Shown: in pieces, positions 111 to 14,440 of the stretch | Numbering within the stretch: position 1 is the first letter of the stretch | Layout: each line of letters begins with the position of its first letter | DNA from: Planctomycetota bacterium | GTDB taxonomy: Bacteria; Planctomycetota; UBA8108; UBA1146 | Assembly (NCBI GenBank): GCA_032128395.1 | Contig: JAQBGV010000184.1 | Span: forward strand, 3,907-67,906 | Length of the DNA: 64,000 bases | Direction: 5' to 3' | The notes under the pieces: model-generated | The model's input: the letters and a program-made list of their open reading frames with translations, nothing else | Database searches by the model: none | Told to the model about the DNA's origin: nothing | Position numbers and translations under genes: made by a program

Positions 111-569
111 GTGACACCGATGAGACTCGTGTTGATCGCGCTCGTCGTGGCGCTGCTCGCTCTCGACCTCGCACGCACGGGAAGTGATGAATTCTCATGT
201 CGGGCCGAAATCGCCCGCGCCGAGGAGGAGATCGGGATCTTGCGACGTCACTGCGACGACCTTCGGGTCGGAACTCAGGTTCGACTGTTCGCCCGAGTGC
301 GCGATACGGAAATCGATCCCGGGGCCGAACTGTCGCCCTTGGAATTGACGCGACGTCCCACCCCTTGGGAGCGTGCAGTGCAGGGCGAGGAGACGGGAAA
401 TCGTGCGTATGCGATTGAGAAGTTGGCACCGCCGCGAGGGTGGCGCCTCGGCGACTGGCTGCGCGCGCGCGAGGGAGGAATCGACGTGCTGTCGAGTACC
501 TATGCGGCGCGGTCCGGGGAACGAGTGGACGTGGCGACCGAGGTCGAGATTCGGAGGAATCGCAGATGA
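111..569 (+). CDS. Small bitopic membrane protein with N-terminal TM helix, immediately upstream of and overlapping ftsI by ATGA; FtsL-like septum protein. Start could be GTG 111 or ATG 120.
   Basis: N-terminal hydrophobic helix MRLVLIALVVALLALDL; position directly 5' of PBP3 gene as in dcw clusters; 4-bp overlap with next gene. Confidence 0.45.
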   Translation: MTPMRLVLIALVVALLALDLARTGSDEFSCRAEIARAEEEIGILRRHCDDLRVGTQVRLFARVRDTEIDPGAELSPLELTRRPTPWERAVQGEETGNRAYAIEKLAPPRGWRLGDWLRAREGGIDVLSSTYAARSGERVDVATEVEIRRNRR

Positions 570-2572
570 GGATCAGTGGACGGCAATTCACTCGGGATCG
601 CTTCTCACTCCGGGTCGGACTCCTCTTCGGCAGCTTTCTCCTGCTCTTCTCGGGAGTTTTCGCGCGCTGCGCCTGGTTGACGATCGCCGAGGCAGATGAG
701 GGTGTCGCACTGCAGGACCGATACGCCCTCTCCCCGGGGTGGGTGCCAGCACGACGTGGGGAGATCACGGACGCGCGGGGGATCACCCTCGCCCGCGACC
801 GTTCCCGCTGGATCGTCGCGATCGACCCCTGGGCAGCCTCCGGTCGGCTCGCCGGGGCGCGAATCCTCGGGGAGACCGCGGCGGCTTTCGAGCGGAATTG
901 TCCGGAACGACTCCGCACGGCGCTCGAGGAGCTGCTTCGGCTCGAGGGATTTCAACCGCTCGCGGATCCGGACGAGATACTCACGCAGCTGATCGAGGAC
1001 CAGAAATTGGCGAGCAAACGTCAGTTTCGGGTGATCGGGCGAATCGACTCGGTCGAATCGTACGAGCGGTTCCTCGAACACCGGCAGCGGGTTCATCGAG
1101 AACGCTGGATCACCTTCCCGATGCCCCGAGAGGAGACGGTACGAGAGTACCCGCTCTGCGGCGTCGCGATGCAGGTCGTCGGGGACACGTCGTCGAAAGG
1201 AACGCCCTACTTCGGAATCGAGGAGCGATTCGACCCCGTACTCTCCGGAATGCGAGGGATCGAGGTTGCGCAGGTCGATGGCATTGGTCGCAACCGATAC
1301 GCGGTCCCCGATGACGCGAACGGAGTCACCGCTCATCCCGGCGCCGCCATCGAGCTGACCATCGAGGTCCCCGCCCAGATCGCCCTCGAGATCATCCTCA
1401 GGGAGACCCTGGAGAAGACCGGAGCAACGATGGTCTCCGGTCTCGTGATGGATCCCCGCACCGGAGCGATCATCGCCGCGGCGAGCGTCCCGACCTGCGG
1501 ACGGGGGACGTACGGAGGGTACTTCCGCCAAGTCATCGCCTCACACTCTGAAGACACTCCGGGCGACGCGGCCGCGCAGATGACCTCGTTCGTGGATCCG
1601 GAGGCGTTCGGTGTCCAGTTGATGGCGAGCCTCTTTCCGATGTCCCCCGGTTCGATCATGAAGCCTCTCGTGCTCGGCCGGGCGCTCGACCTCGGAATGG
1701 TTCGTCTCACCGATCCGGTGCATGTGGACGGGACGCACAATTCGCAGCGGTACGGTCGCGCGGTGCGGCACTACACGGACTCCCATCCGCTACACGACCG
1801 CACCGTGCGTGGGTCCGTGGTCGAGTCGAGCAACGCGGGGATGGGAGAGGTCGGCGCAAAGCTCGGGACCGAACCGCTCCAGGAACTCCTTGCCGACCTC
1901 GAGTTCGGAGCGGGGACCGGGTTCGACCTCAGCGAGGCTTCGGGGCGTTTGCCTGGACAGCGGGGCGCGCTCCCCTGGAACGATCACACCACGCTGTCGA
2001 TCCCGATCGGCTACGAACTCCTCGTCACCCAGGTGCAGATCGCGCGCGGATACGCCGCGATCGCGAATGGGGGTTGGCTCATCACCCCGCACGTCGTACG
2101 TAGGATCGACGGCGTCGCAACACCCAATGCGGCCTCGCGACGGGTCTACTCAGCGGAGACTTCGGAGGCGCTACGGAAGGTGCTCCGCGAAGTGGTGACC
2201 CGAGGAACCGGTCACGAACTCGACGGCGATGCGATTCGACTCGCCGGGAAGACCGGAACGGCCGCGCACTACGACAAGCACGGGAAGATCGAGGGGTGGT
2301 ACACCAGCTCCTTCGCGGGATTCGCGCCGGCGGAGGCGCCGCGGTACGTGGCGGTGGTCACCGTGGAGAGGCCGAGCGGAGAGACCTACTACGCCAGCAA
2401 GACCGCTGCTCCGGCAGTCTTGGAGATCTTGAAGGCACTCCTCGGGGACCCGGGCGGGAACCGGTTCCGCGCCCTCCTCGCCGATGCACTTGCGGGGTCC
2501 GGAGAGGCACCTATCATCGCTCCGGGACTGCATGGGGAGGATGGGAGATGGGGAACTCCCGCAGGGGACTGA
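566..2572 (+). CDS. ftsI: Penicillin-binding protein 3 / FtsI-type class B transpeptidase
   Basis: N-terminal TM helix, then SxxK (SIMKPL), SxN (SSN) and KTG(T) (KTGTA) transpeptidase motifs in order; dcw context. Confidence 0.85.
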   Translation: MRISGRQFTRDRFSLRVGLLFGSFLLLFSGVFARCAWLTIAEADEGVALQDRYALSPGWVPARRGEITDARGITLARDRSRWIVAIDPWAASGRLAGARILGETAAAFERNCPERLRTALEELLRLEGFQPLADPDEILTQLIEDQKLASKRQFRVIGRIDSVESYERFLEHRQRVHRERWITFPMPREETVREYPLCGVAMQVVGDTSSKGTPYFGIEERFDPVLSGMRGIEVAQVDGIGRNRYAVPDDANGVTAHPGAAIELTIEVPAQIALEIILRETLEKTGATMVSGLVMDPRTGAIIAAASVPTCGRGTYGGYFRQVIASHSEDTPGDAAAQMTSFVDPEAFGVQLMASLFPMSPGSIMKPLVLGRALDLGMVRLTDPVHVDGTHNSQRYGRAVRHYTDSHPLHDRTVRGSVVESSNAGMGEVGAKLGTEPLQELLADLEFGAGTGFDLSEASGRLPGQRGALPWNDHTTLSIPIGYELLVTQVQIARGYAAIANGGWLITPHVVRRIDGVATPNAASRRVYSAETSEALRKVLREVVTRGTGHELDGDAIRLAGKTGTAAHYDKHGKIEGWYTSSFAGFAPAEAPRYVAVVTVERPSGETYYASKTAAPAVLEILKALLGDPGGNRFRALLADALAGSGEAPIIAPGLHGEDGRWGTPAGD

Positions 2573-4104
2573 GAATTTCCGCCGAAGTGTACGACGAGCG
2601 GTCGGGACGCCCCGAGGCTCTCCCGAGACCACTCGACGGAGTGGAGATCGTCGCTCGCACCGGTGCGCGACAGCACGGTCCGTCACCGGTTGCAGCGTTC
2701 CGTACCCTCCGAACCGACGACCGCGCGAACCGAGGCGATCTCTTCGTCGCGATTCGCGGCGTTCACTACGACTCGCACCGCTCGATTTCCGAGCTACCAC
2801 GGTCCGGCGTCCTCGGGGTGGTGGCGGAGTCCGCTCCCCCCGCCGGCTATCCCCTCCCGTGGTTCGAGGTCGACGACACTCGCCGAGCCCTCGGGCGGCT
2901 CGAGCACGCGCGTTGGGGAGACCCTGCGCAACGACTGCGAGTCTTCGGAATCACCGGCACCAACGGGAAGTCCTCGACCGTCCGGATCCTCGCATCGATT
3001 TTCGAGGCGGCCGAAAGTTCCTGCGGATTCATGACCACGGTCTCCCGCTCGCTCGCCGGAACGGAGGAGCCGAGCGCGATGACGACCCCGGGGGCGAGCG
3101 ATCTCGCCGAGATGCTCGCGCGCTGCGTTGCCTACGGCAGCCGATCCGTGGTGCTGGAAGTCTCTTCCCACGCACTCGATCAGCACCGCGTCGAGGGGAT
3201 CCCCTTCGCCGGGGCCGCCATTACCCAACTCTCCCGAGACCATCTCGACTATCACGGGGACCTCCGTGCTTATCGAGATGCGAAGCTGCGCATCACGGAG
3301 CATCTGGCCGATGGAGCACCGATCGTTCTCCCGACCGATGAGACATTCCGCTCGGATCTCCCCGATCTTCCGGGGGTGCTCCTCAGGCACTCCATGAATG
3401 CGGAGCTTCTCGCCGGGGAGCGTGGGGGGACGGTGCGCGGAAGCGAGCTCGATGGTGAGGGAATCTCAGCGGAGCTGGAACTCCTCGGTGAGCGGCTCCT
3501 GATTCGAAGCACTCTGCGTGGCCGACACAACCTCGAGAACATCCTGACCGCCTCGACGCTCGCCCGCGCGGTGGGGATTTCGATGGAAGTGATCGCGAGC
3601 GGGATCGAACGGACCCCAGCGGTCCCAGGGCGACTCGAGGAAGTGAAGGGGAAGGTCGGACGGGGGAGGGTGTTCATCGACTACGCGCACACCCCGGACG
3701 CGCTCTCTGCGGTTCTCGAATCGCTGCGCGCGTGGCGTCCTCGACGACTCCTCGTGGTCTTCGGTTGCGGCGGGGATCGCGACCGTGGGAAGCGGCCAGA
3801 GATGGGAGCGGCAGCGGAGCGACTTGCCGACCGGGTCTTCGTGACCTCGGACAATCCTCGCGGGGAGGACCCCGGGGCGATCATCGACGACGTTCTCAGG
3901 GGGATCGAGGACCGCGGTCGTGTCGTCGTCGAGCCCGATCGCCGATCTGCGATCGCCGCGGCGGTGGCGGACCTGGGCGGGGAGGACCTTCTCGTCGTCG
4001 CAGGGAAGGGACACGAGAGGGAACAATGGATCGGCGGGACGAACATTCCCTTCGATGACCGACAGGTGGTCGCCGAACTCCTCGCCGCGGAGCCTCGGTC
4101 TTGA
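2548..4104 (+). CDS. murE: UDP-N-acetylmuramoyl-L-alanyl-D-glutamate--2,6-diaminopimelate ligase (start uncertain; the annotated ORF extends upstream into ftsI)
   Basis: Mur ligase P-loop GITGTNGKSST, C-terminal DNPR motif, position after ftsI. Confidence 0.8.
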   Translation: MGNSRRGLRISAEVYDERSGRPEALPRPLDGVEIVARTGARQHGPSPVAAFRTLRTDDRANRGDLFVAIRGVHYDSHRSISELPRSGVLGVVAESAPPAGYPLPWFEVDDTRRALGRLEHARWGDPAQRLRVFGITGTNGKSSTVRILASIFEAAESSCGFMTTVSRSLAGTEEPSAMTTPGASDLAEMLARCVAYGSRSVVLEVSSHALDQHRVEGIPFAGAAITQLSRDHLDYHGDLRAYRDAKLRITEHLADGAPIVLPTDETFRSDLPDLPGVLLRHSMNAELLAGERGGTVRGSELDGEGISAELELLGERLLIRSTLRGRHNLENILTASTLARAVGISMEVIASGIERTPAVPGRLEEVKGKVGRGRVFIDYAHTPDALSAVLESLRAWRPRRLLVVFGCGGDRDRGKRPEMGAAAERLADRVFVTSDNPRGEDPGAIIDDVLRGIEDRGRVVVEPDRRSAIAAAVADLGGEDLLVVAGKGHEREQWIGGTNIPFDDRQVVAELLAAEPRS

Positions 4105-5477
4105 GGGCGCGCCCGCTCTCCGAGGTGGCCCGCCTCCTCGGCGGCCGCATTCTGGGAAGCCAAGCGGAGCAGTGTCGAGACGTCCTCGCGACGGGCGCGG
4201 CGATCGATTCTCGAATGGTTCACCGCGGGGACATTTTCTTCGCGATCCGCGGTGTGCGGGATGGGACCGAGTTCGCTTCATCCGCAATCGAACTGGGAGC
4301 GATCGCGGCGGTGGTCGGACGCGGGTCCGCGGATCGGGTTGCCGGGCCGGCGATCGAAGTCGACAACCCTCGCGATGCCCTCGGACGCCTCGCCGCCGGG
4401 GTGCGCCGGGAGGAGCGAGACGCCCTCCCCGCGGTCGCGATCACCGGGAGCGTCGGCAAGACCACCGCCTGCGGGTACGTCGCGACCCTGCTCAGCACGA
4501 TCGGTCCGACCCATCGCCCCCCCGAGAGCTTCAACAACGACCTCGGGGTACCACTGACGATTCTCGGGGCTCCGGAGGAGACCCGCTCGCTCGTGATCGA
4601 AATCGGTACGAACGCTCAGGGGGAAGTCGCGGCGCTCGCGGCTTGGACCGAGGCCTGCGTCGGGGTCGTCACCTCGATCGCGCACGCTCACCTCGAGGGG
4701 CTCGGTTCTCTCGCCGGAATCGCGCGCGAGAAACTCTCGCTCTTCGATGCGCTCCCAGCGAGCGCGGTCGGCTGGGTCCCTGTCGCTCACGCAGCAGCTG
4801 CCGCGGCACGGGGACGCACGATCCACTCGTTCGGGCCAGGGGGGGAGAGCGAAGTGATCCCACTTCGCGACGATCCCACCCGGTCGATCTGGCGGCTCGG
4901 GGCAGTGGAGCGCGAGTTCTCGTGGCCCGGTGCCAGGCGTGATCAACGCGAACTGCTCGCAGCGGCGTTCGGGGTCGGATTCACGCTGGGAGCGAATCCC
5001 GAGTTGATGCTCGCCTGCGTCGGGGAGCTCCCGGTGCCGCCGCTTCGAGGCGAGATCCGTCGACACGGAGGGGTGGAGCTCCTCCTCGACTGCTACAACG
5101 CGAACCCTGCCTCGCTCGAAGCCGCGATCGAACGCCTCGAGGAGGAACCCGCCGAGGGCCGACGGCTCTGCGTCATCGGGACGATGGAAGAACTCGGTGC
5201 CGAGGAGGCGAATTGGCACCGAGCTCTGGGTCGCCGTGTCGGGAGCGGTGTCGTGGACGGGGTATTTCTGGTCGGTCGCGCAAGAGAGTGGTACCGCGAG
5301 GGACTTCGCGAGTCCGGACGCGACGGGGAGCTGGTCGAGGTCGACGATCGAGGTGCCCGCCACCTCGCCACAACTCTGCGCCCGGGCGACCGCGTGCTCT
5401 TCAAGGCGTCGCGGCTCGAGGCACTCGAGGTGTTCGCAGGCCGGGTCGCCGCACTCCTCGGCGCGGAGGAACGGTGA
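4101..5477 (+). CDS. murF: UDP-N-acetylmuramoyl-tripeptide--D-alanyl-D-alanine ligase; TTG start overlapping murE stop
   Basis: Mur ligase P-loop ITGSVGKTT, gene order murE-murF. Confidence 0.8.
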   Translation: MRARPLSEVARLLGGRILGSQAEQCRDVLATGAAIDSRMVHRGDIFFAIRGVRDGTEFASSAIELGAIAAVVGRGSADRVAGPAIEVDNPRDALGRLAAGVRREERDALPAVAITGSVGKTTACGYVATLLSTIGPTHRPPESFNNDLGVPLTILGAPEETRSLVIEIGTNAQGEVAALAAWTEACVGVVTSIAHAHLEGLGSLAGIAREKLSLFDALPASAVGWVPVAHAAAAAARGRTIHSFGPGGESEVIPLRDDPTRSIWRLGAVEREFSWPGARRDQRELLAAAFGVGFTLGANPELMLACVGELPVPPLRGEIRRHGGVELLLDCYNANPASLEAAIERLEEEPAEGRRLCVIGTMEELGAEEANWHRALGRRVGSGVVDGVFLVGRAREWYREGLRESGRDGELVEVDDRGARHLATTLRPGDRVLFKASRLEALEVFAGRVAALLGAEER

Positions 5478-6637
5478 AGATCAGCGGCGGCGCAGCGACG
5501 TGGCTTCTTCCCCGTTCTAGGCCGATCCCCGCCCCTGGGCTCGGTTGGCTCGGGGCCGCGCTCCTCCTCCTCGCGATCGGACTCGCGACCGTCTACTCGG
5601 CGAGCTTCTACCGAGCACTGATTCGAGAGGCGGGTGAATTCCACTTCCTGAGGCAACAGCTCCTCGGGGCGGGACTCGGCCTGATCGCGCTCGCCTGCGC
5701 GGCCCGCATCGACCCACGCCGCTGGATCGAACATGCGCCGACGCTCTACCTCGGGACCCTCGCGATGCTGATTCTCGTATGGTCGCCGCTCGGAATCGCT
5801 TCCGGTGGGTCGCATCGCTGGGTGAATCTCGGGGTGGTCGGGGTGCAGTCGTCGGAATTGGCGAAGATCGCGACCCCGCTCCTCCTCATCTGGTACTTCG
5901 GCCGATACGGCGACCTCTCAGGGAAACAGTCCGGGTGGAAGATCCACGTCAATCTGCTCCTCATCGGGACACTCTTCCTGGCCGTCGGTCTGGTCCTCCT
6001 GGAACCGGACCTCGGAACTGCTGCGTTCATCTTGACCGTCGGCCTGGTCGTGATCGTCTGCTCCGGCGCTCCGCTCCGGTACTGGATCGGGTTCGGTCTG
6101 CTCGTCTCGCCGCTCCTCGTGTGGCAGATGAACTCGCGATGGGACCTGATCCAGAACCGATTTCTCGCGGTCACCGCCCCAGAACAGGTCCCGCAGGTCC
6201 AACACGCGCTGACCGCGATCCGGGCGGGTGGAATCGATGGCGCAGGGATCGGGCTGGGGACGGAGAAGACCCTCTTCCTCTTCGCGGAATTCAGCGATTT
6301 CATCTTTGCGGTGTACGCCGAAGAAACCGGACTCCTCGGAATCTCGGTGCTGTTGATCCTCTTCGTCGCGCTCCTCGTATTCGGTTGGCGGATCGTCCAC
6401 CGTTGTCGAATTCCGCTCCTCCGACTCCTCGGCCTCGCCATCGTCTGCAACCTGGTCCTCCAGGCGCTCGTCAACCTCGCGGTGAATACCGCACTCGCAC
6501 CGACGAAAGGTATCGCGCTACCGTTCATCTCCCACGGCTCGACCGGCCTCACCCTCGCGCTCTTCCAAGTCGGAGTGCTGCTCGCGATCTCCCGCATCGG
6601 CACCGAAGAACGCGACTCCGAAGTGGCGCCCTCGTGA
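5474..6637 (+). CDS. ftsW: SEDS-family peptidoglycan glycosyltransferase FtsW; GTG start overlapping murF stop. The annotated ORF from 5213 is an upstream extension inside murF.
   Basis: Multi-TM protein with FtsW/RodA-like motifs (VYSASFY, SELAKI); position between murF and murG. Confidence 0.75.
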   Translation: MKISGGAATWLLPRSRPIPAPGLGWLGAALLLLAIGLATVYSASFYRALIREAGEFHFLRQQLLGAGLGLIALACAARIDPRRWIEHAPTLYLGTLAMLILVWSPLGIASGGSHRWVNLGVVGVQSSELAKIATPLLLIWYFGRYGDLSGKQSGWKIHVNLLLIGTLFLAVGLVLLEPDLGTAAFILTVGLVVIVCSGAPLRYWIGFGLLVSPLLVWQMNSRWDLIQNRFLAVTAPEQVPQVQHALTAIRAGGIDGAGIGLGTEKTLFLFAEFSDFIFAVYAEETGLLGISVLLILFVALLVFGWRIVHRCRIPLLRLLGLAIVCNLVLQALVNLAVNTALAPTKGIALPFISHGSTGLTLALFQVGVLLAISRIGTEERDSEVAPS

Positions 6638-7782
6638 TGCGCCGCATCCTCTTCGCTGGAGGAGCAACGGGGGGGCACCTCTACCCCGGTCTTGCTCTCG
6701 CCGAGGAGTTGCGCAGCCGCGGCGAGGTGGACCCGATCTTCCTGACCGAGGGCGATGAGATCGCTGAGCGCATCCTCGGCCCCCGGGGGATGCGGACCAT
6801 CTCCGCAAACGTGCTCTCGTCGCGACGGCCGTGGCGTTGGGGTATCCGGGGGCGGCAGCTCGCGCGGAGACTCGATCGGGAGCAGATCGATGCCGTCGTC
6901 GCCCTGGGGGCGCGACCTGGAATCGTTCCGGGAGCGTGGACCCGCTGGAATCGTCGGCCGCTCTTCCTCCTCGAACAGAATCGCGTTCTCGGCCGCGCGA
7001 ACCGAGTGTTGCTTCCCTTGGCGACCCGGATCTTTCTCAGCTTTGACGACACCCAACCCGAGGATCGCCTGCGCGATCGCGCCCTCCGACTCGGCTGCCC
7101 CGTGCGCTCCGAGTTCACCCGGGCTGAACTCCCCCCGGGACCACCGATGCTGCTGGTGCTCGGGGGCAGTCAGGGAGCCCGTGACATCAACGAGCTCGCC
7201 CCCGCGGCGCTCGAGTTGATGCCGGCGAAGTCTCGCTGGCGTGTGTTCCACATCTGCGGGTCGGGTAAGGAGAAAGGGATCGAGGAGCGGTATCGCGCGG
7301 CCGGGATCCTTGCCACCGTCCGGGCGTTCCTGCAAGATCCGGCCGACGCGCTCCGGGAGGCATCGTTGGTCCTGGCGCGCGCAGGGGGATCGACCATCGC
7401 CGAATTGACGGCCGTCGGGCGGGGAAGTCTGCTCATCCCGTATCCCCATCATCGCGATCTTCAGCAGTTCCGGAACGCCGAGGCGCTCACTCGGGTCGGG
7501 GCTGCGGAGGTCATCGGGTGCGATTCGATCGGCCTCGCCTCTCGACTGGTTGCGCTCTACGCCGACCTGGGCCGACGGGTCACGATGGCGCGAGCAGCGC
7601 GTGAGGCCGGGAGGCCAGATGCGGCCAAGAGAATTGCGGACGTGATCGCGACGCATCTCGACTGCGATCCCATCCGTCGGCGGGATGCTCGGGGATTGGA
7701 CTGCTCTCCGCACGCGGGGACGGCGGTTGCTCCGAGCGGGGGAGTGGGTCGGCGGGAGATCCGATCGGAGGGGGACCGATGA
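6637..7782 (+). CDS. murG: UDP-N-acetylglucosamine--N-acetylmuramyl-(pentapeptide) pyrophosphoryl-undecaprenol N-acetylglucosamine transferase
   Basis: N-terminal GGxGGH motif (MRRILFAGGATGGHLYPG), C-terminal glycosyltransferase-28 region; 1-bp overlap with ftsW stop; the long 5779 ORF is an artefactual 5' extension. Confidence 0.8.
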   Translation: MRRILFAGGATGGHLYPGLALAEELRSRGEVDPIFLTEGDEIAERILGPRGMRTISANVLSSRRPWRWGIRGRQLARRLDREQIDAVVALGARPGIVPGAWTRWNRRPLFLLEQNRVLGRANRVLLPLATRIFLSFDDTQPEDRLRDRALRLGCPVRSEFTRAELPPGPPMLLVLGGSQGARDINELAPAALELMPAKSRWRVFHICGSGKEKGIEERYRAAGILATVRAFLQDPADALREASLVLARAGGSTIAELTAVGRGSLLIPYPHHRDLQQFRNAEALTRVGAAEVIGCDSIGLASRLVALYADLGRRVTMARAAREAGRPDAAKRIADVIATHLDCDPIRRRDARGLDCSPHAGTAVAPSGGVGRREIRSEGDR

Positions 7783-8411
7783 GCCCGAGCTTCGGGCCCT
7801 GGCTGCGAATTCTCGGCTCGGGGGCGATCGCTACTCTCGGGATCGCAGTTCTCTGGTCCAGCTGGCCCGAGGGAAGTCGGACCGCCGCTGCCCCTCGATC
7901 AGGTCCTTGGACCGTGCCGGTCCAGGCTGGTTGGCTCCCCGATCCTCTCGTTCTAGACCCCTGGGCGGAGCCCCAGCCGGCTCTCATCGAAAATCACCCG
8001 GCTCCGCACGACCCCGCTCCCGTGCTTCCTCCCCCGTCGGACGTCACCTTCATCTATGTCGTGAAACAGAACGACTCCCTCTGGGGCATCTCGGCCCGAG
8101 TCCTCGGTGATCCACTCCGGGTGAGCGAGATCGAACGTTGGAATCCGGGCATCGGTGAGCGGATGCTGCAGCCGGGGATGGAAGTCGTGCTTCCCGGGGC
8201 AGGTTCTTCGAATACTCAGACGCAGGCGCGAACCACGCCTCAAGAGATCCGACACCACCTCGTGAGCAAGGGGGAGAATCTGACCCGCATCGCGAACCGG
8301 TACGGCGTCACCGCGGAGATGATCTTCGAGGGAAATCGTGACCGGCTCCCCTCGATCGATCGAGTCCGCGTGGGCCAACGCCTGCGCATCCCCGAAGGGG
8401 GGGGACGATGA
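7779..8411 (+). CDS. Membrane-anchored protein with two LysM peptidoglycan-binding domains and no evident catalytic domain
   Basis: N-terminal TM segment; two LysM-like blocks (YVVKQNDSLWGISARV..., HLVSKGENLTRIANRYGV...); inserted between murG and murC with 4-bp overlaps. Confidence 0.6.
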   Translation: MSPSFGPWLRILGSGAIATLGIAVLWSSWPEGSRTAAAPRSGPWTVPVQAGWLPDPLVLDPWAEPQPALIENHPAPHDPAPVLPPPSDVTFIYVVKQNDSLWGISARVLGDPLRVSEIERWNPGIGERMLQPGMEVVLPGAGSSNTQTQARTTPQEIRHHLVSKGENLTRIANRYGVTAEMIFEGNRDRLPSIDRVRVGQRLRIPEGGGR

Positions 8412-9790
8412 TCATCGGTCCCAGGCTCCCGGAGACGGTTCACATCGTCGGCGTCGGGGGCAGCGCGACGAGCGGTCTCGCTCGCATCCTTCAGTCGCGC
8501 GGGGTTCGGGTGAGCGGATCCGACCTGACGCGAGAGTCGGTCGGTGCGCTCCACGCTGCGGGGATCACGGTGGAGGTCGGACACCGCACCGAGAACGTTC
8601 GTGAGCGAGTGGAGATGGTCGTGCACTCCGCGGCGATCCCCGAGTCGAATCCGGAGTTGGTCGAGTCGCGCCGACGCGGGGTCGAAGTCCTGAAATACGC
8701 CCAATTCCTCGGGCGACTGGTCGATCAGAGTTTCGGCATTGCGGTCGCCGGCACCCATGGCAAGACTTCGACCGCGGCGATGCTCGCGAGCGTCTGGATC
8801 TCCGCGGGACGGGAACCGTCCGTTCTGCTGGGCGGCCGCCACCCGGACCTGGGAGGGAACTGGCGCGCTGGCCGGGGCCCGGACTTCCTGGTCGAAGCGT
8901 GCGAGTTCGATCGCAGCTTCCACTCCCTCCATCCCCAGGCGGGGATCATCACGAACCTCGAGCTCGACCATCCCGACATCTACGCCGATCTCGGTGCGGT
9001 CCAGGAATCCTTCGGTGCGTTCATCGCCGGGTTCCGACCCCCGGGAATCATCGCTCTCGGGATCGACAGCGAGGGGGCCCGAACGCTCTCACGTCCTCCG
9101 GAGGTGCGGATCGAGACCTTTGGGTTCCGCCCCGACGCGCAGTGGCGCGCCACAATGCGTGAGGGGGGCAGCGCTCCGGTCTTCGAGGTGTACCGCAGAG
9201 GGCGCTCGTGGGGTAGGTTCCGCTTGCGGGTCGCCGGGCGGCACAACGTTCTCAATGCGCTCGGAGTGATCGCGTTGGCGGATGCTCTCGGCGTCGAGCG
9301 CGAGGCGATCGCCTCGGGGCTGGAGCGTTTCCCCGGAGTCGAGCGTCGTTTCGAGCACCGCGGCCGAGCCGGCGGCATCGACTGGGTCGATGACTTCGCG
9401 CACCATCCCACGGAACTTCGAACGGCGATCGCGACCGCCCGGGAGGTCTTCGGAGGGCGACGCCTCTGGGTCTTGTTCCAGCCACACCAGCACACACGCA
9501 TGCGGAGCTTCGGCGCCCAGTTCGCGGAGGAGCTCGCACGCGCGGACGCGATCGGCCTTCTTCCGGTCTACTCGGTCCGGGAGCCGGAGGGACGGGGATC
9601 CCCCGACCTTCTCGAGTCACTGGTCCGGGAGGTCCGTCGGCGCGGGGCACCGGTCGAGAGGTTCTCTTCCTTCGACGATGCCGCGCGCGGTCTTCCCGAT
9701 GTGCTTCTCCCTGACGATGTCTGTCTCGCCTGCGGCGCCGGAGACCTTTTCCTCCTCACTCGGAGACTCATCGAGGATCTGCGCAGATGA
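8408..9790 (+). CDS. murC: UDP-N-acetylmuramate--L-alanine ligase
   Basis: VHIVGVGGSATSGLA N-terminal Rossmann motif, Mur ligase P-loop AGTHGKTSTAAM. Confidence 0.85.
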   Translation: MIIGPRLPETVHIVGVGGSATSGLARILQSRGVRVSGSDLTRESVGALHAAGITVEVGHRTENVRERVEMVVHSAAIPESNPELVESRRRGVEVLKYAQFLGRLVDQSFGIAVAGTHGKTSTAAMLASVWISAGREPSVLLGGRHPDLGGNWRAGRGPDFLVEACEFDRSFHSLHPQAGIITNLELDHPDIYADLGAVQESFGAFIAGFRPPGIIALGIDSEGARTLSRPPEVRIETFGFRPDAQWRATMREGGSAPVFEVYRRGRSWGRFRLRVAGRHNVLNALGVIALADALGVEREAIASGLERFPGVERRFEHRGRAGGIDWVDDFAHHPTELRTAIATAREVFGGRRLWVLFQPHQHTRMRSFGAQFAEELARADAIGLLPVYSVREPEGRGSPDLLESLVREVRRRGAPVERFSSFDDAARGLPDVLLPDDVCLACGAGDLFLLTRRLIEDLRR

Positions 9791-10662
9791 TCCATCACAA
9801 GGTCCCCCTCGCTCCGTGGATGGGATACCGCACGGGCGGGATCGCGCGGTTCTTCGCCGCTCCGCGGACGGAAAAGGAATTCATTGCGGCCTTGCGATGG
9901 AAGGAGCGGGAAGGGACCCCGTGCTTCATCCTCGGCGGTGGGACGAACACGTTGATCGGAGACGATCTCTTCGATGGCCTGGTGATCGCGACCGCCGGCC
10001 TTCGCGCGAAGAGCACCATCTCCGATGGGCGACTCGAAGTGGGGACGGGGAAGACCCTACCCTCGTTGATCGGCGTGACGGTCCACGCCGGGTGGCAGGG
10101 GCTCGAGGGGTTCATCGGGATCCCGGGGACGATCGGCGGCGCGGTGTGGGGAAACGCCGGTGGCGCGGGGGGGGAGATTCAGCGACTCATCGAATCGGTT
10201 CTGGTCATCGAGAGGAATTCTGCCCCCCATTGGATCGAGGGCGCGACGCTCCCGTGGGACTATCGTCACTCTGGAATCGGTGACAGAGCGATTCTACGGG
10301 TACGCCTCCAGTTGCGTCCCGGATCGGAACCGAAAGCGCTCAAGGACCACGCGAATGCGGTACTTGCGCGGAAGCGTGCCACACAACCGCTCCACGCGCG
10401 GAGCGCCGGTTGCGTCTTTCGCAATCCTCCGGGGGATTCTGCGGGTCGACTGATCGAGGCCGCGGGGTTGAAGGGGACGTCACTCGGGGGAGCCCGGGTC
10501 TCCGATCGGCATGCGAACTTCATCGTCAACGAGGGGTGTGCGACCTCGGGAGAGATTCTCGCACTCATCGAGCGCGTGCGTTCCCGGGTCGCCACAAAGT
10601 TCGGAGTCTCGCTCCAGAGGGAGATCGTGAATGCCACCACGACCGAGGGGTGTCATCCATGA
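9787..10662 (+). CDS. murB: UDP-N-acetylenolpyruvoylglucosamine reductase
   Basis: FAD-binding GGGTN motif, C-terminal RSAGCVFRNP motif; overlaps murC stop. Confidence 0.85.
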   Translation: MIHHKVPLAPWMGYRTGGIARFFAAPRTEKEFIAALRWKEREGTPCFILGGGTNTLIGDDLFDGLVIATAGLRAKSTISDGRLEVGTGKTLPSLIGVTVHAGWQGLEGFIGIPGTIGGAVWGNAGGAGGEIQRLIESVLVIERNSAPHWIEGATLPWDYRHSGIGDRAILRVRLQLRPGSEPKALKDHANAVLARKRATQPLHARSAGCVFRNPPGDSAGRLIEAAGLKGTSLGGARVSDRHANFIVNEGCATSGEILALIERVRSRVATKFGVSLQREIVNATTTEGCHP

Positions 10663-11525
10663 TCCGCGCGATCGAGAGTCGAACATCGGGGAGAGCGGTC
10701 GGGGGGCGCTCCCTCTCAGGATCGATCCGGGCGCTCCTCTTGCTGGTCGGAGCACTCTTGGTGGTCGGCGGATCGATGGCGATGGAGCAACGAGTGTCAC
10801 GGAAGCTGGCGGCAACCGAGGGAGACTGGCAGTTCGTCACCTCAGCGCTCCCGCAGTGGTTTCCGGCCGGCTTCACCGGATGCCTCGCTGACCTCGATCG
10901 AATTCCGAACCAGGTCCCCTTGCGGAGCGCGACCTGGCGACGTCGCATCGCCGCTGCACTCCGCAGCAATCCTTGGATCGAGAATGTTTCCAGAGTCGAG
11001 CGCGCGGTGGATGGGATCGCGTTCGAGGCGCAGTTCCTTCGACCGGCGGTCGCGGTTCGGGCCGATGGTGGGTACCTCCTCATCGACTCGGAGGGATGCG
11101 TGATCGATCTCCAGCCTGGTCCCGAACTGCTCCCTTCCTGGGGAGTCCCGGAGTACATCCCTGGCGGTCGTGAGTTTCCGCGTCTTGCATCGGGGACCCG
11201 CCTCGACGATCCCGAATTCGAGGAGTGTCTCTCTCTCGTGCGCGTTCTCTGGGAGAGCCGGACCCTGGATCGATTTCCCGGCGAGATCCTTGCCCTCGAT
11301 GCCTACACGATGACCGACACCCCAGGGCTCCTCTGGCGGATGCACTCCCGCACCGGGGTTGCCCTCTACTGGGGTCGGGCGCCGGCCTCCACGCATGTGT
11401 CACTCCGACCCGCCGAAGAGAAGATCCGCTCCCTACAGGAGGTTCTCCGCCTCGGGGACCGAATCCGCGGCGCCGGGGGAATCACGCTGCACGGAGCGGA
11501 GCCGATGGTCGTCGGTCGCCTGTGA
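10659..11525 (+). CDS. ftsQ: FtsQ/DivIB-like cell division protein (POTRA-containing bitopic protein); the annotated ORF from 10410 is a 5' extension inside murB
   Basis: Short cytoplasmic N-terminus, single TM (LLLLVGALLVVGG), periplasmic POTRA-like region; position after murB; ATGA overlap with murB stop. Confidence 0.55.
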   Translation: MIRAIESRTSGRAVGGRSLSGSIRALLLLVGALLVVGGSMAMEQRVSRKLAATEGDWQFVTSALPQWFPAGFTGCLADLDRIPNQVPLRSATWRRRIAAALRSNPWIENVSRVERAVDGIAFEAQFLRPAVAVRADGGYLLIDSEGCVIDLQPGPELLPSWGVPEYIPGGREFPRLASGTRLDDPEFEECLSLVRVLWESRTLDRFPGEILALDAYTMTDTPGLLWRMHSRTGVALYWGRAPASTHVSLRPAEEKIRSLQEVLRLGDRIRGAGGITLHGAEPMVVGRL

Positions 11526-11705
11526 TCACCACATTCGGGCCCATCGGACCGGGGGATGCCTCGACTCGGTCTGGCCCTGGTCGGTCGGACTCGTTATCTT
11601 GAGCCCTGATCGAGGGGCGATGGCGAGCATCGAGAACGTTTTTCGGGGCATGACTCCGAAGCGAAGTCCCGATTCTGAAACTGACCACGGAAGGGGAGAG
11701 GCACG

Positions 11706-11951
11706 GTGCAGGCCGATGACCGGTACCGGCGCCTGTTCGGTGAGATCGCTCTGGAGAGCGGATTCGTCGATGCGGCTCAGCTCTACGAGGCCCTGACCGT
11801 TCAGGCGAAGCGCCGCGCCGAGGGGAGGGCTGATAAGCTCCTCGGACAGATTCTCCTCGAGCTGGGATACCTCTCACCCGAGCAGCTGCAGGAGGTCATC
11901 GATCACCTGTACCCCCCGGAGCGGGAGAAGAACCCCGCTCTCGATCAGTAG
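11706..11951 (+). CDS. 81-aa protein made of two tandem MshEN/T2SSE_N-type 24-residue motifs (possible minimal c-di-GMP-binding MshEN domain)
   Basis: LFGEIALESGFVDAAQLYEALTVQ and LLGQILLELGYLSPEQLQEVIDH match the (R)LGxxLxxxGxxxxxxLxxALxxQ tandem motif of GspE/MshE N-terminal domains; good RBS (AGGGGAGAGG) before GTG start. Confidence 0.45.
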   Translation: MQADDRYRRLFGEIALESGFVDAAQLYEALTVQAKRRAEGRADKLLGQILLELGYLSPEQLQEVIDHLYPPEREKNPALDQ

Positions 11952-12054
11952 TCACGACTGGAGAGCGATGACCGAGCGCGACGATGGGCGCGCGTTTCGG
12001 CGGCGAGTGCTCTCACCCGAGGCGGAGCGATGAGACCCGACCCGAGGCGGCACG

Positions 12055-14124
12055 ATGAGTGAAGATCCGAAGCCGAAGCGCCCGAAGGCGCCGGTCCCGA
12101 AGGGTCGGCGTGCGCCGGTCCCCGCGCGCAAGCGGCTAGCAGCTCCCGGGGCCGCCCCCCGCCCTGCGACGCCGTCCCCTCAACAACAACCCGCTTCGGC
12201 CGGTTCTCCCGGTGCGAAGCCACCGGCGACGTCACCTCCACCCGTCGATGCGCAACGAGCATCGGCAGAGAGAGCGCAGGCCGCCGCAGAAGCGCAGTCC
12301 AGGGAAGTGGCGCAAGCCACGGCAGAGCAGCAGGCACGGGTTGCAGCTGCACGCCGAGCTGCGGAGCAGGCCGCACAACATGCTGCGCAGCAGCAGGCGC
12401 TCGCCGAGAAGGCCACTCGCATCGCGGCCGCTCGCGAAGCAGCGGCACGCAAGGCCGCGCAGGAGGCCGCAGCGGGCCAGAGGTCTGCACCCGCTGCTCC
12501 CGCGAAGCGAGCGGTCGGCCCCGCGAGGCCGACCCCTGCACCGCAAGCGAAGTCCCCCCCGCAGCGAATTCCATCGAAGGCCGGAACTCCGACTCCGGCG
12601 ACCAGACCACCGGCTCGTCGCCCCGGTTCTTCTCCAACATCTCCGCCCGCCCGTTCCACCCCCGGCGGAGCGCGCACTCCACCTCAACGAGGCGCCCGGA
12701 CCACTCCCCGCCCCGCTCGACACGCTCCGGCCGTTGCCGGAGCGGAGGGGAAGGAGCAACCTCGGGGTGAGCTCGTGCCCCATGGAGGTGGCAGTTCGAA
12801 GGTCCCACTCATCGGCGGAATCGTGGCGGTGGTCGCCGTCCTCACACTGGGTGGGTTCCTCTACTTGGGCGGGGATCCGGAGCCGGTGCCTGACGAGACG
12901 GCGCGCGTCGAGATCCCTCAGGTGGATCCGCGGCTCGAGGCTTCCAAGAAGGCCCTCGAGCAGGCGATCGCCTACGAGAAGGAGAATCCGCGGGAATTCG
13001 TGGAGATGATCATCCAGTACGACCAGATCGCGGAGGTCTTCGCCAGCCTGCCCCCCGCTGTCGAGTCGGCGGAGAGGAAGGCCGCCGCGGTCGACGCCTG
13101 GCGCAGCGCCGTCGATGTGGCCCGCCAGCAACTCTCGACCGATGTGGATCAACTCGTCGCCAAGTTGCGCTATTCCGAGGCCCTTGCGATGCTGGACTCC
13201 CCGGACCAGGTATTCCAAGGAGCGGATGACTTCTTTTCGCCCGACCATCCGGTACTCCGCTGGATCGGTTCTCGCCGGAAGGAGGTCAAGATCCTCGTCA
13301 CCGCCCAGGCTCGACTCCAGGAGCTGGAGGGCAAGGCCGCGAGGTATGGCGAGCACGAGGAGATCGCTCTGGCGATCCTGGCTGCGTTCCCCGAAAAGTA
13401 CGAGACCGAAGCAGCTCCGGTGTGGAGCCTCAAGCAGGAGACCCTCGCCCAGATCAAGCGCGACGGACTGAGTCGTTGGATCGACACCGAGCAGAGCGCC
13501 GAACTCGATAGGGTCGAGACCGCCAGAGTCCAGGCAGTGGAAGAAGAGAGCCGCCGCGCGGCGCGGTGGGCGAGCCTGAAAGACGGCAAGGCGTGGTTCC
13601 CACACCTCGGGAGGCACAACCTCTACAACTGGATCTCGACCAGCGACGCGATCCGACAGGAACCCCAGTGGCGGTTGACCGTGCGCGAGGACCAACCCCT
13701 GTTGATCGCGGACAACGGCTACGGCAACGACATGTGGATCGGGCCTTTCACGAATCACTGGAAGGACTACGTGCTCGAGTTCGAGATGCGTCTCCTCCGG
13801 GGCGAGGTGTCGGTCTCACCTCGCACGACTCTCACCTCAGGGGAGTACGTACGAACGATCGGGGATCAAACGAGCCCGATGTTCGTGTTCTCCGAGGCAA
13901 ACGGTGTCGCGGCCGGGAAATGGGTTCGCGTGACGATCGAGGTGAACGGCACTTCGCTACGAGCGGACGTGGCGGGACGATCCGAGCCACTCGTACTCGA
14001 CCCCGAAGAGTCCCGTATCCCCGAACTGGGCGGATTCATCTTCTGGGTTCCCGATGGCTCTCAGGTCGAGCTGCGCGGAATTCAGAGCAAGCTCATCAAC
14101 TCGACTCGCGACGGTCCCTTCTGA
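12055..14124 (+). CDS. Bitopic membrane protein with a basic Ala/Gln/Pro-rich low-complexity cytoplasmic N-terminal region (~260 aa), one TM helix, and a periplasmic C-terminal beta-sandwich (DUF1080 / concanavalin-like) domain
   Basis: Composition and hydrophobic segment VPLIGGIVAVVAVLTLGGFLYLGG; C-terminal WKDYVLEFEM...GKWVRVTIEVNG resembles 3-keto-disaccharide hydrolase/DUF1080 fold; antisense ORFs here rejected. Confidence 0.5.
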   Translation: MSEDPKPKRPKAPVPKGRRAPVPARKRLAAPGAAPRPATPSPQQQPASAGSPGAKPPATSPPPVDAQRASAERAQAAAEAQSREVAQATAEQQARVAAARRAAEQAAQHAAQQQALAEKATRIAAAREAAARKAAQEAAAGQRSAPAAPAKRAVGPARPTPAPQAKSPPQRIPSKAGTPTPATRPPARRPGSSPTSPPARSTPGGARTPPQRGARTTPRPARHAPAVAGAEGKEQPRGELVPHGGGSSKVPLIGGIVAVVAVLTLGGFLYLGGDPEPVPDETARVEIPQVDPRLEASKKALEQAIAYEKENPREFVEMIIQYDQIAEVFASLPPAVESAERKAAAVDAWRSAVDVARQQLSTDVDQLVAKLRYSEALAMLDSPDQVFQGADDFFSPDHPVLRWIGSRRKEVKILVTAQARLQELEGKAARYGEHEEIALAILAAFPEKYETEAAPVWSLKQETLAQIKRDGLSRWIDTEQSAELDRVETARVQAVEEESRRAARWASLKDGKAWFPHLGRHNLYNWISTSDAIRQEPQWRLTVREDQPLLIADNGYGNDMWIGPFTNHWKDYVLEFEMRLLRGEVSVSPRTTLTSGEYVRTIGDQTSPMFVFSEANGVAAGKWVRVTIEVNGTSLRADVAGRSEPLVLDPEESRIPELGGFIFWVPDGSQVELRGIQSKLINSTRDGPF

Positions 14125-14312
14125 CGCGAAGCGCCGAAGGGCTTCGGTTGCCGCGAAGAATTTTCCTTCGTCGGTCAGGCTCGAAACGGGTAGTGGTAGG
14201 GCCGTCCGGGACCAGCTGCCAGAGCGGCAGGGTGCGGAGCCCGGGGGTGACCAGCCCCTGTCGATCTGGCAGGCGATGCGGCCGCGGTGGTCCCAGCGAT
14301 TCCGTAAGTGGT

Positions 14313-14347
14313 TCTCTGGCAAGAATTTCCGCTCCCCCTCCGCATCT
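14313..14347 (+). promoter_or_regulatory. Possible sigma-32-type heat-shock promoter upstream of groEL copy 1
   Basis: TCTCTGGCAAGAA ... CCCCCTCCGCATCT resembles TCTCnCCCTTGAA-N13-15-CCCCATnT; about 95 bp before groEL start; no CIRCE seen. Confidence 0.3.
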
Positions 14348-14440
14348 CTAGTTGGCCCTCTCTTTGCTCCGCCGCGACGACTCTGGCCCATGATCTGAAG
14401 CTCGGTCCGGAGCGGACTCTCCGGCAAGGAGGAAGCAAAG

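Follow-up and report, generated by a model that had tools for sequence, protein, structure and literature searches.

An eroded dcw operon of an uncultured planctomycete with a LysM gene between murG and murC and two conserved non-canonical genes downstream of an ftsQ-like gene

Loss of ftsZ and ftsA, together with erosion of the dcw cluster, has been documented for the Planctomycetota (PMC5147048, PMC12283558, PMC12673574) and is therefore known biology rather than a new finding. FtsB, too, is reported to be lost from every planctomycete (PMC12673574). FtsZ-less dcw clusters that have undergone erosion have been described in Planctomycetota and Chlamydiota (Pilhofer 2008, as cited in PMC8871954), and the locus presented here shares with them a canonical relative gene order, a lack of both ftsA and ftsZ, and the relocation of some genes. 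It differs from them in three ways. The lineage has neither murD nor ddl in the cluster, and its sub-lineage is also without mraY; a LysM gene is fixed between murG and murC; and two conserved non-canonical genes follow ftsQ. The LysM gene, the pair after ftsQ and the absence of murD, ddl and mraY are not mentioned in the cited dcw papers, Pilhofer 2008 being represented by its account in PMC8871954, and the term "LysM" does not occur in PMC12283558 or PMC8871954.

The window, by which we mean the whole 64-kb stretch of DNA that was analyzed, comes from a Planctomycetota MAG. An earlier note, made from the letters alone, had proposed an FtsZ-less host from the PVC group, which fits both this source and the losses documented for the phylum. 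Homologues of the 81-aa protein that carry names are all "[Planctomycetota/Planctomycetes bacterium]" MAG proteins, and one related locus bears the label Planctomycetia. The features of the locus are as follows.

111..569, plus strand: ftsL-like gene between rsmH and ftsI, product with a TM helix; overlaps ftsI by 4 nt
566..2572, plus strand: ftsI, class B PBP transpeptidase (PF00905 at 5.9e-48; NCBIfam PBP2/FtsI-type matches)
2548..4104, plus strand: murE (TIGR01085, 411 bits against a cut-off of 257)
4101..5477, plus strand: murF, TTG start (top NCBIfam match TIGR01143, 275 bits); 4-nt overlap on each side
5474..6637, plus strand: ftsW, SEDS family, GTG start (PF01098 at 5.5e-66; TIGR02614 253 bits against 201 for RodA)
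6637..7782, plus strand: murG (PF03033 and PF04101; TIGR01133, 190 bits)
7779..8411, plus strand: 2xLysM protein, 210 aa (two copies of PF01476, 71.8 bits)
8408..9790, plus strand: murC (TIGR01082, 382 bits against a cut-off of 335)
9787..10662, plus strand: murB (NF010480, 268 bits against a cut-off of 259)
10659..11525, plus strand: divergent FtsQ/DivIB-like bitopic protein, 288 aa; final gene in the operon's translationally coupled series
11571..11601, plus strand: upstream motif of the 81-aa gene, with columns conserved in six lineages
11706..11951, plus strand: 81-aa alpha-clip protein, GTG start (PDB sequence matches to the MshEN domains of PilF and MshE)
12055..14124, plus strand: 689-aa bitopic protein (assigned from sequence, TM helix, charge and family alignments)
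14216..14367, plus strand: palindromes and sigma-54-type promoter ahead of groEL, at the boundary with the next unit
14441-16072: groEL; 16122-17735: second groEL; then dnaJ and grpE

Positions 111-11525 are the 3' two-thirds of an mraZ- and rsmH-led dcw operon of an uncultured member of the Planctomycetota. The dcw backbone is collinear on one strand in the order mraZ-rsmH-ftsL-ftsI-murE-murF-ftsW-murG-murC-murB-ftsQ, with mraZ and rsmH located 5' of the ftsL-like gene in the source contig. From Pfam and NCBIfam searches and ORF coordinates, the part inside the window was resolved as a ten-gene run on the plus strand (ftsL-like-ftsI-murE-murF-ftsW-murG-2xLysM-murC-murB-FtsQ-like). The gene order and translational coupling that had been read from the letters agree with these results, and all nine junctions between the ftsL-like and FtsQ-like genes overlap, by 1, 4 or 25 nt. 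Some of the operon's start codons are TTG and some are GTG. Mis-assembly was rejected because independent assemblies of the same organism share an identical gene order. The gene identities, the structure of the operon and its conservation are demonstrated.

Neither mraY, murD, ddl, ftsA nor ftsZ was found inside the operon (111-11525) with Pfam and NCBIfam models, and the 31 further long ORFs that were scanned in the rest of the window showed no domain of the MraY, Mur-ligase, Ddl, FtsA or tubulin/FtsZ type. Because the flanking genes overlap by 4 nt in each case, mraY and murD cannot fit between murF and ftsW, and the junction of murB with the FtsQ-like gene has no space for ddl. The absence of these five genes from their usual places, as claimed in the earlier note, is thus upheld by the junctions and by the domain scan alike. 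The note had itself looked to ftsA or ftsZ directly beyond the locus as evidence against its reading; neither was found 3' of the 689-aa gene, where groEL, groEL, dnaJ and grpE follow instead. In more distant relatives (L015-L018), mraY is kept between murF and ftsW, and its absence from the cluster is a feature of the sub-lineage. As we see it, ftsA and ftsZ would be absent since the phylum lost them, and mraY, murD and ddl would have moved out of the cluster, mraY only in this sub-lineage. Since MurG and MurF depend on what mraY, murD and ddl produce, these three genes probably have other locations in the genome.

The 210-aa product of the LysM gene starts at its N-terminus with a segment of moderate hydrophobicity, has a Pro-rich linker and carries two LysM domains; its PF01476 score lies well above the gathering cut-off of 20.9 bits and places it in that family. 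The gene overlaps murG and murC by 4 nt each, is translationally coupled to both, and occupies the same place in 10 of the 10 related loci that cover the interval (L002, L003, L006 and L013-L019). Its product would be an in-operon periplasmic peptidoglycan-binding protein. Along with the 81-aa and 689-aa genes, it makes up the new part of the locus: three conserved, undescribed extras that are candidates for a part in wall building or division.

Two names from the earlier note, ftsL-like and ftsQ, could be retained in part. The start of the ftsL-like gene is uncertain (GTG 111, ATG 120 or TTG 132). Its product has one N-terminal TM helix (residues 3-21) followed by a helical stretch, a coiled coil by eye only, and had no Pfam or NCBIfam match; the name, a tentative one, is drawn from position, TM helix and helical stretch and finds no backing in any family model. 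FtsQ and DivIB proteins are built of a POTRA domain and a beta domain, and the divergent window protein lies beyond the reach of sequence models. No Pfam, NCBIfam or PDB sequence match was obtained for it (a PDB profile search was negative), POTRA_1 (PF08478), FtsQ_DivIB_C (PF03799) and the NCBIfam FtsQ models matched 0 of 12 members of its family at E<=10, and hhalign against E. coli FtsQ gave a probability of 0.7%. In a word-indexed search of 5.8 billion proteins, only 9 relatives were recovered. The protein is bitopic, with one N-terminal TM helix and a predicted periplasmic POTRA plus beta-domain fold, for which TM-scores against FtsQ/DivIB structures (PDB 2vh1, 6h9o, 2alj and 8bh1) were modest (0.34-0.45). 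Topology and predicted fold class are both demonstrated. Identity as FtsQ/DivIB rests on position, topology and predicted fold, whereas every sequence model fails, and we refer to the protein as divergent and FtsQ-like. The FtsL-like, FtsI, FtsW and FtsQ-like proteins would form a septal peptidoglycan synthase core, to which the operon adds MurE, MurF, MurG, MurC and MurB.

Downstream of the FtsQ-like gene the coupling ends, with gaps of 180 nt before the 81-aa gene and 103 nt between the 81-aa and 689-aa genes. About 105-135 nt 5' of the 81-aa gene lies a motif, CTGGCC-N~15-GGAaTCGTTATCTTG, conserved in six lineages, which is a candidate promoter or operator of this gene's own. The motif overlaps a hairpin after the FtsQ-like gene that was scored as terminator-like, and it looks more like a promoter or operator; a terminator scan of 11300-14600 returned three hits versus 1.8 expected, which is not significant. 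The chaperone operon also has its own control elements, since two CTGCC-N5-GGCAG palindromes and a conserved sigma-54-type TGGC-N7-TTGC promoter precede groEL. A CIRCE/HrcA operator was sought 5' of groEL and was absent.

All related loci retrieved (L002-L007 and L011-L019) have the 81-aa gene after the dcw cluster, with the contig of L005 stopping short of the upstream dcw genes. In L017 the 81-aa gene is inverted, the 689-aa gene is missing at this place in L016 and L017, and a SAM_HAT gene intervenes in five lineages. The chaperone operon (groEL-groEL-dnaJ-grpE) comes next in all loci that extend far enough and is as syntenic downstream as the dcw operon is upstream; conserved adjacency therefore does not single out division. 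The earlier note had marked the two genes as candidate lineage-specific division components. Such a role is plausible but unproven because the pair is uncoupled, the 81-aa gene has its own motif and both genes are equally syntenic with the chaperone operon, and the inversion and losses also weigh against regarding it as established. The window further encodes a DUF4388 protein, a prepilin peptidase and a pilin-like N_methyl protein, and an N_methyl gene is also present 3' of the chaperone genes in relatives.

The 689-aa protein begins with a basic, Ala/Pro/Arg-rich, disordered cytoplasmic tail (residues 1-248, net charge +27) that carries a conserved N-terminal peptide. A TM helix (250-268) leads to a periplasmic part in which a helical domain precedes a beta domain that is ConA-like and related to DUF1080, and this tail-TM-helical-beta architecture is kept in eight lineages. 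The family is narrow, with 93 representatives at E<=1e-3 among 1.84 billion, so that the protein is not the widespread one that the earlier note had considered damaging to its proposal. In AF2 predictions from four sequences, the helical part was confident and the beta domain had a pLDDT of <50; the beta-domain model was discarded as unreliable, its best Foldseek E of 0.09 giving no meaningful match. A PDB profile search with the C-terminal domain found no match, and the window protein reached no Pfam threshold (Laminin_G_1 at E 0.25).

The "DUF1080-like" label applied in the earlier note holds for this protein at the level of remote homology, and not as a Pfam match of the window protein itself. 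PF06439 matched 2 of 7 family members at 1.7e-4, and four remote profile matches (P0200, P0207, P0219 and P0222) carry PF06439 on the aligned stretch. With the DUF1080/3-keto-disaccharide hydrolase family (PF06439), the C-terminal 180 residues share the patterns W..dG / W.DYVLEFE / GGF..R. PF06439 belongs to the ConA-like lectin/glucanase clan, the likeness is remote, and catalysis or binding is putative only. By analogy, the protein may be likened to the bitopic, wall-sensing division and elongation proteins FtsN, RodZ and DipM: it has a short, conserved cytoplasmic peptide at its N-terminus, a long low-complexity linker, a single TM helix and a periplasmic region with a putative glycan-binding domain at its end. 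Unlike these proteins, it has no SPOR, LysM, HTH or LytM domain, its periplasmic end is ConA/DUF1080-like, and its disordered region is cytoplasmic; no homology to them was detected.

The 81-aa protein is acidic (net charge -5) and cytoplasmic, and consists of two tandem alpha-clip (MshEN_N-like) helical-hairpin repeats. The closest described proteins are MshE of V. cholerae (PDB 5htl) and PilF of T. thermophilus, which likewise have two helix-turn-helix repeats in tandem, each about 24 residues long; the pattern hG..hh..Ghh....h...h is common to the 81-aa protein and the MshEN_N/alpha-clip module. PDB sequence matches to the MshEN domains of PilF and MshE were obtained at 3.5e-6 and 2.8e-3, respectively. 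In contrast to MshE, PilF and PATAN proteins, members of the 81-aa family are without an ATPase, REC or PATAN body and stand alone at 71-122 aa. At least 508 homologues rule out a spurious ORF. A FumaraseC_C hit on the protein was dismissed as spurious (21 residues, under threshold), and CdgR, a c-di-GMP effector of cell size, was discarded as an analogue on account of its unrelated ComFB-type fold. DUF4388 matched weakly in 60 of 60 members, at profile positions 33-73 (the alpha-clip insert) and under the gathering score of 25 bits; the full PATAN/DUF4388 domain (PF14332) of about 120 positions is not present in the family. Across relatives, identity was 60-72% for the 81-aa protein, 23-47% for the FtsQ-like protein and 56-78% for GroEL, and at long range the 81-aa protein is more strongly conserved than any other protein of the locus.

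Our favored explanation combines an eroded dcw operon, separate conserved transcription units for the 81-aa and 689-aa genes, and a proposal of a linker and its partner; taken jointly, we consider it marginally probable. The 689-aa protein would link across the envelope in the manner of FtsN or RodZ: a glycan in the wall would be read or bound by its periplasmic ConA-like domain, and its long basic tail, with the conserved N-terminal peptide, would recruit a cytoplasmic partner. The 81-aa protein would act as this partner or would regulate the same machinery, and might respond to a nucleotide. We infer that the two proteins may interact with each other and that ligands may be bound. Any division role of the pair is tentative, and we lean toward doubting it. 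A further-reaching version, which we judge unlikely, holds that the LysM, 81-aa and 689-aa proteins are real parts of an FtsZ-independent machine for division or wall growth in a large uncultured lineage of the Planctomycetota, in which the 81-aa protein is a cytoplasmic organizer or switch that assumes some of the tasks of FtsA/FtsZ-side regulators by binding the basic tail, perhaps under the control of a ligand.

It is also conceivable, if unlikely, that the gene order is inherited and meaningless, that the 81-aa protein regulates a type IV pilus or type II secretion-like machine, and that the 689-aa protein is an unrelated envelope protein. The only significant similarities of the 81-aa protein are to the N-terminal domains of MshE and PilF and to the alpha-clip part of DUF4388/PATAN. 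Alpha-clip repeats serve such machines in this way in PilB/GspE/MshE ATPases, where they are N-terminal, and in the PilB- and PilC-binding PATAN regulators, where they are internal, and PATAN domains bind PilB1 and PilC (10.1101/2021.06.11.447907). A true MshEN gene (38483-39184) accompanies the DUF4388, prepilin peptidase and N_methyl genes of the window, and relatives have N_methyl as well. Against this, no secretion or pilus ATPase or platform gene adjoins the 81-aa gene in any related locus, and the gene remains beside the end of the dcw cluster in every context retrieved, across relatives whose MurG and FtsW are only about 35% identical.

That the 81-aa protein is a canonical MshEN-type c-di-GMP receptor, coupling c-di-GMP levels to cell wall synthesis, is a reading that we regard as improbable. 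The two 24-residue repeats are of MshEN type, with conserved Gly and hydrophobic positions and a conserved Gln in the first repeat, and binding by MshE is dominated by hydrophobic residues, Arg9 shifting affinity less than five-fold (PMC5013675). The published motif consists of two copies of [RKPN]hGxxhhxx[GAS]hhxxxxhxxxhxx[QNKRYWST] with a spacer of about 5 residues (PMC5013675), and only 1 of 60 family members has any copy of it, in relaxed form. Position 1 of both repeats is hydrophobic, with a basic residue one position earlier; the residues at this position are L, M, F or Q, and the motif calls for R, K, P or N. The second repeat ends in L or V in place of the motif's Gln, and the spacer is 10-11 residues in the family versus 5 in MshE. 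PF05157, the MshEN model, matched 0 of 60 members at E<=1, whereas the window's own true MshEN protein matched it at 1.6e-23 in the same library; hhalign against that MshEN protein gave a probability of 1.9%. The "MshEN" label of the earlier note was replaced with that of a degenerate alpha-clip.

That the 81-aa protein, and possibly the 689-aa protein, belongs by function to the groEL-groEL-dnaJ-grpE heat-shock operon, say in its regulation or in sensing envelope stress, is quite improbable: the groEL operon does follow in every sufficiently long locus, and the 81-aa gene adjoins groEL in L016 and L017 (divergently in L017, a typical regulator-target layout), but the sigma-54-type promoter and palindromes of groEL point to an enhancer-binding ATPase and not a helical protein of 75 aa, the 81-aa protein is without a DNA-binding domain, and its upstream motif is unlike the groEL elements.

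The value of the eroded operon and its extra genes is limited because all members so far come from metagenome assemblies and the functional link is one of synteny alone. Genes that have kept their place at the dcw operon across deep divergence, and that are conserved better than GroEL, provide a short, concrete list of candidates for the components missing from the picture of FtsZ-less division in planctomycetes, namely the alpha-clip mini-protein, the operon-coupled LysM protein and the trans-envelope ConA-like protein.

Searches of the plus-strand ORFs from 111 to 14124 against Pfam and NCBIfam bore out the gene list that the earlier note had read from this interval, in a window with a G+C content of 62-68%. 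The genes with family matches were as follows.

566-2572, + strand: ftsI (Transpeptidase, 5.9e-48)
2548-4104, + strand: murE (TIGR01085, 411 bits)
4101-5477, + strand: murF (best match TIGR01143, 275 bits)
5474-6637, + strand: ftsW (TIGR02614, 253 bits, scoring above RodA)
6637-7782, + strand: murG (TIGR01133)
7779-8411, + strand: LysM protein (210 aa, two LysM domains)
8408-9790, + strand: murC (TIGR01082, 382 bits)
9787-10662, + strand: murB (NF010480, 268 bits)

The flanking ORFs, ftsL-like (111-569) and FtsQ-like (10659-11525), matched no Pfam or NCBIfam family. Up to 11525, each of the nine junctions is an overlap (seven of 4 nt, one of 1 nt and one of 25 nt), and the start codons include TTG and GTG. 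As had been claimed, mraY, murD, ddl, ftsA and ftsZ are absent in place: the overlaps leave no space for mraY and murD between murF and ftsW, nor for ddl 5' of the FtsQ-like gene, and the 31 further long ORFs scanned elsewhere in the window contained no MraY, Mur-ligase, Ddl, FtsA or FtsZ/tubulin domain. Downstream of 11525, gaps of 180, 103 and 316 nt precede the genes for an 81-aa protein (11706-11951), a 689-aa protein (12055-14124) and groEL, respectively. Directly beyond the locus lie groEL, groEL, dnaJ and grpE rather than ftsA or ftsZ. On contig JAQBCW010000248.1, 5' of the stretch that corresponds to the window, the order is mraZ, a 90-aa ORF, rsmH and the ftsL-like ORF, and this mraZ-rsmH-ftsL-like end is the canonical start of a dcw operon. 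In locus L008 (1-5952, upstream of the window), the genes 5' of mraZ lie on the opposite strand and encode a YggS-like PLP-binding protein (Ala_racemase_N, 233 aa), DnaE and a Ser/Thr kinase with an FHA domain.

The non-canonical dcw layout is confirmed. Identical proteins in identical order occur on contig JAQBCW010000248.1 (NCBI MAG GCA_032124895.1) and in independent Logan assemblies, which excludes mis-assembly. Homologues of the 81-aa protein with a source name are all hypothetical proteins of Planctomycetota or Planctomycetes bacterium MAGs, and one related genome is labelled 'uncultured Planctomycetia bacterium'. The dcw cluster of Planctomycetota has been described as eroded and fragmented (PMC12673574; PMC12283558). 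The headline of the earlier note is thus a correct recognition of documented biology, the layout without ftsA and ftsZ being already known for the phylum; its interpretation is supported in part, the synteny of the two 3' genes being ambiguous as to a division role.

Among related loci, mraY (PF00953) is kept between murF and ftsW in L015, L016, L017 and L018 and is missing from that interval in the window, L002, L006, L013, L014 and L019, so its loss from the cluster is a sub-lineage event. None of the loci seen has murD or ddl within the cluster. MurG requires lipid I and MurF requires D-Ala-D-Ala, from which we infer that mraY, murD and ddl are encoded elsewhere in this genome. Other variants of the cluster include a murC-murB fusion gene (L013 6726-9065, 779 aa) and an unusually long FtsW (L018 520-3249, 909 aa).

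The FtsQ-like product (288 aa) has a single TM helix at residues 23-41. Only nine relatives, none with a Pfam domain, came out of a word-indexed search of 5.8 billion proteins; POTRA and FtsQ models matched none of 12 family members, distant ones included, even at E<=10, and profile searches of PDB sequences were negative. An AF2 model built from nine sequences was usable (pLDDT 75.7, pTM 0.70), and its top three Foldseek matches were E. coli and Yersinia FtsQ (E 1.4e-4 to 1.7e-3, probability 1.0), with the fourth falling to probability 0.2. Alignment to E. coli FtsQ by hhalign was insignificant (probability 0.7%), with 'NPWIENV' and 'LPWIKQV' still in register. We therefore accept the label ftsQ, on which the sequence models are silent, for a highly divergent FtsQ/DivIB-like protein, given its position, its topology and its predicted fold.

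The LysM gene overlaps both murG and murC by 4 nt, and its product has an N-terminal segment of moderate hydrophobicity, a linker rich in proline and the LysM domains. It lies between murG and murC in 10 of the 10 related loci covering the interval, even where the relatives' MurG is only 35% identical, and of the three extra genes it is the one most firmly tied to wall synthesis by operon structure. The term 'LysM' is absent from two papers on dcw synteny (PMC12283558, PMC8871954).

The acidic 81-aa protein (net charge -5) lacks a TM segment. PDB sequence searches matched it to MshEN domains, that of T. thermophilus PilF at 3.5e-6 with the repeats summed, and that of V. cholerae MshE at 2.8e-3 (residues 6-63 against 5-56). 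Pfam detected MshEN in none of 60 family members at E<=1, and all 60 gave a sub-threshold match to DUF4388 positions 33-73. DUF4388 is the PATAN domain, and these positions are its alpha-clip insert, which makes the protein a stand-alone alpha-clip, an MshEN_N-like helical module. Such a module could serve pilus or secretion regulation, although we consider this unlikely. Alternatively, the protein might be a canonical c-di-GMP receptor, a reading that overlaps our main model; in MshE, hydrophobic contacts dominate binding of the ligand (PMC5013675). Against it, a copy matching the relaxed motif (PMC5013675) occurs in only 1 of the 60 members, repeat 2 ends in L or V instead of the motif's Q, and the spacer is 10-11 residues versus 5 in MshE. 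Both repeats have L, M, F or Q at position 1, and the basic residue stands one position before it. Canonical c-di-GMP binding is thus not predicted from these sequences, and the receptor reading seems improbable. The 'tandem MshEN-motif' label is best read as two repeats of a degenerate alpha-clip. The window also encodes a genuine MshEN domain in a 233-aa protein (38483-39184, + strand; PF05157, 1.6e-23) and a 1120-aa protein that combines DUF4388/PATAN, TPR, PEGA and beta-propeller regions (33512-36874, - strand), so the genome has canonical alpha-clip proteins beside the mini-protein. The family of the 81-aa protein has at least 508 matches, the best 120 of which are all 71-122 aa.

Residues 1-248 of the 689-aa protein (27% Ala, 18% Pro, 12% Arg) have a net charge of +27, the sole TM helix spans 250-268 and the remainder has a net charge of -20, so the topology is N-in. 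Alignments of the family show a conserved N-terminal peptide (MSExPxxKRPKAPxPKxRRAPVPARKR), then a variable (AAAQ[QK])n run, sequence rich in Pro and Arg, the TM helix, a periplasmic helical domain that AF2 predicts confidently, and, at the C-terminus, a beta domain (~180 residues) in which the motifs W..W, N.W.DYVLEFE, SPR and GGF are invariant. In several relatives the automatically called gene starts at the TM helix, and in-frame upstream extension restores the basic peptide, (AAAQQ)n run and Pro/Arg-rich tail, which means that database entries for the family often lack their N-terminus. The places concerned are listed below.

L006 8438-9473: large gene, N-terminal truncation
L007 1462-2233: large gene, N-terminal truncation
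L013 10294-10954: large gene, N-terminal truncation
L014 10455-10980: large gene, N-terminal truncation

In L013 the opposite strand carries a called shadow ORF, and the L015 protein has a Zn-ribbon-like N-terminus in place of the basic tail. The family is narrow, not widespread: word-indexed search gave 4 matches, and an exhaustive profile search gave 93 representatives among 1.84 billion at E<=1e-3, 54 of them reaching 1e-10. PF06439 (3-keto-disaccharide hydrolase, formerly DUF1080) was matched by 2 of 7 members (1.7e-4) and Laminin_G_1 by 3 of 7; the weakest profile matches, to the beta domain only (P0200, P0207, P0219 and P0222), carry PF06439. Remote homology therefore supports the proposed lectin/DUF1080-like (ConA-like) assignment. 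In the AF2 model the beta domain was unreliable, and a fold search with that model was uninformative. Another profile match, P0161 (421 aa), joins the N-terminal half of Cpn60 to this beta domain and is probably a frameshift or assembly chimera over the large-gene/groEL junction.

The 81-aa gene lies 3' of the dcw cluster end in every related locus retrieved, and the large gene follows it in the window, L002-L007 and L011-L015; at that position L018 carries a 696-aa gene with no Pfam match. Identities to L002, L013, L014 and L015 are 72, 60, 61 and 70% for the 81-aa protein, 78, 68, 67 and 56% for GroEL1, 47, 42, 38 and 23% for the FtsQ-like protein and 65, 48, 44 and 35% for MurG, the 81-aa protein being the best conserved of the locus at the longest distance. 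Gene order outside operons is usually lost at such divergence. A SAM hydroxide adenosyltransferase-like gene (PF01887/PF20257) separates the FtsQ-like and small genes in the five more distant lineages listed below; the window's sub-lineage lacks it.

L015 8969-9784: SAM_HAT-like
L016 9095-9880: SAM_HAT-like
L017 2335-3171: SAM_HAT-like
L018 8946-9764: SAM_HAT-like
L019 9124-9948: SAM_HAT-like, overlapping the FtsQ-like gene by 4 nt

The 180 and 103 nt gaps leave the two 3' genes uncoupled from the operon; the small gene is inverted in L017, and in L016 and L017 the large gene is missing here, with groEL following directly. A non-coding motif, CTGGCC-N~15-GGAaTCGTTATCTTG (11571-11601), about 105-135 nt 5' of the small gene, is kept in six lineages, which suggests a promoter or operator specific to this gene; the spacing within the motif is not that of sigma-54. 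It overlaps a hairpin scored as terminator-like by a simple scan. The groEL-groEL-dnaJ-grpE block is as syntenic as the dcw genes, so adjacency does not separate a dcw link from frozen order or a chaperone link. Upstream of groEL are a sigma-54-type -24/-12 promoter, TGGCCCTCTCTTTGC (14353-14367, a TGGC-N7-TTGC match that occurs nowhere else in the 64 kb window), and two CTGCC-N5-GGCAG palindromes (14216-14230 and 14258-14272), all conserved in six lineages, and no CIRCE element; these features suggest that sigma-54 and an enhancer-binding protein control the heat-shock chaperones of this lineage. Linkage of the two genes to the chaperone operon, which shares their synteny, is very unlikely given groEL's own conserved promoter and palindromes.

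Other genes in the window include the following.

20132-20842, - strand: pilin-like N_methyl protein just beyond the chaperone genes (place kept in L002 and L013-L015)
30589-32390, + strand: ECF sigma factor and adjoining zf-HC2/FecR anti-sigma-like protein
39961-40746, - strand: second ECF sigma factor
46898-55180, + strand: HlyD-type adaptor, then two large AcrB-family RND transporter ORFs
55232-55319: tRNA-Leu(GAG)
59707-60804, + strand: prepilin peptidase (A24)

We tentatively propose that the small and large proteins may act in division or wall growth. The operon would provide the SEDS-bPBP synthase (FtsW-FtsI), its FtsL-like and FtsQ-like partners and the cytoplasmic lipid II steps, and the LysM protein would tether to, or sense, peptidoglycan. 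The 689-aa protein would be a trans-envelope linker whose ConA-like domain binds wall glycan and whose basic tail and N-terminal peptide recruit a cytoplasmic factor; the acidic alpha-clip protein may be that factor, or a switch on the same machine. FtsN and RodZ offer a functional comparison for such a linker, and no homology of the 689-aa protein to either was found. What is new is not the layout but the conserved LysM, alpha-clip and bitopic ConA-like genes. All members seen come from uncultured organisms, and the evidence for these genes is one of genomic context; they make a short set of candidates that can be tested for a part in FtsZ-independent division.
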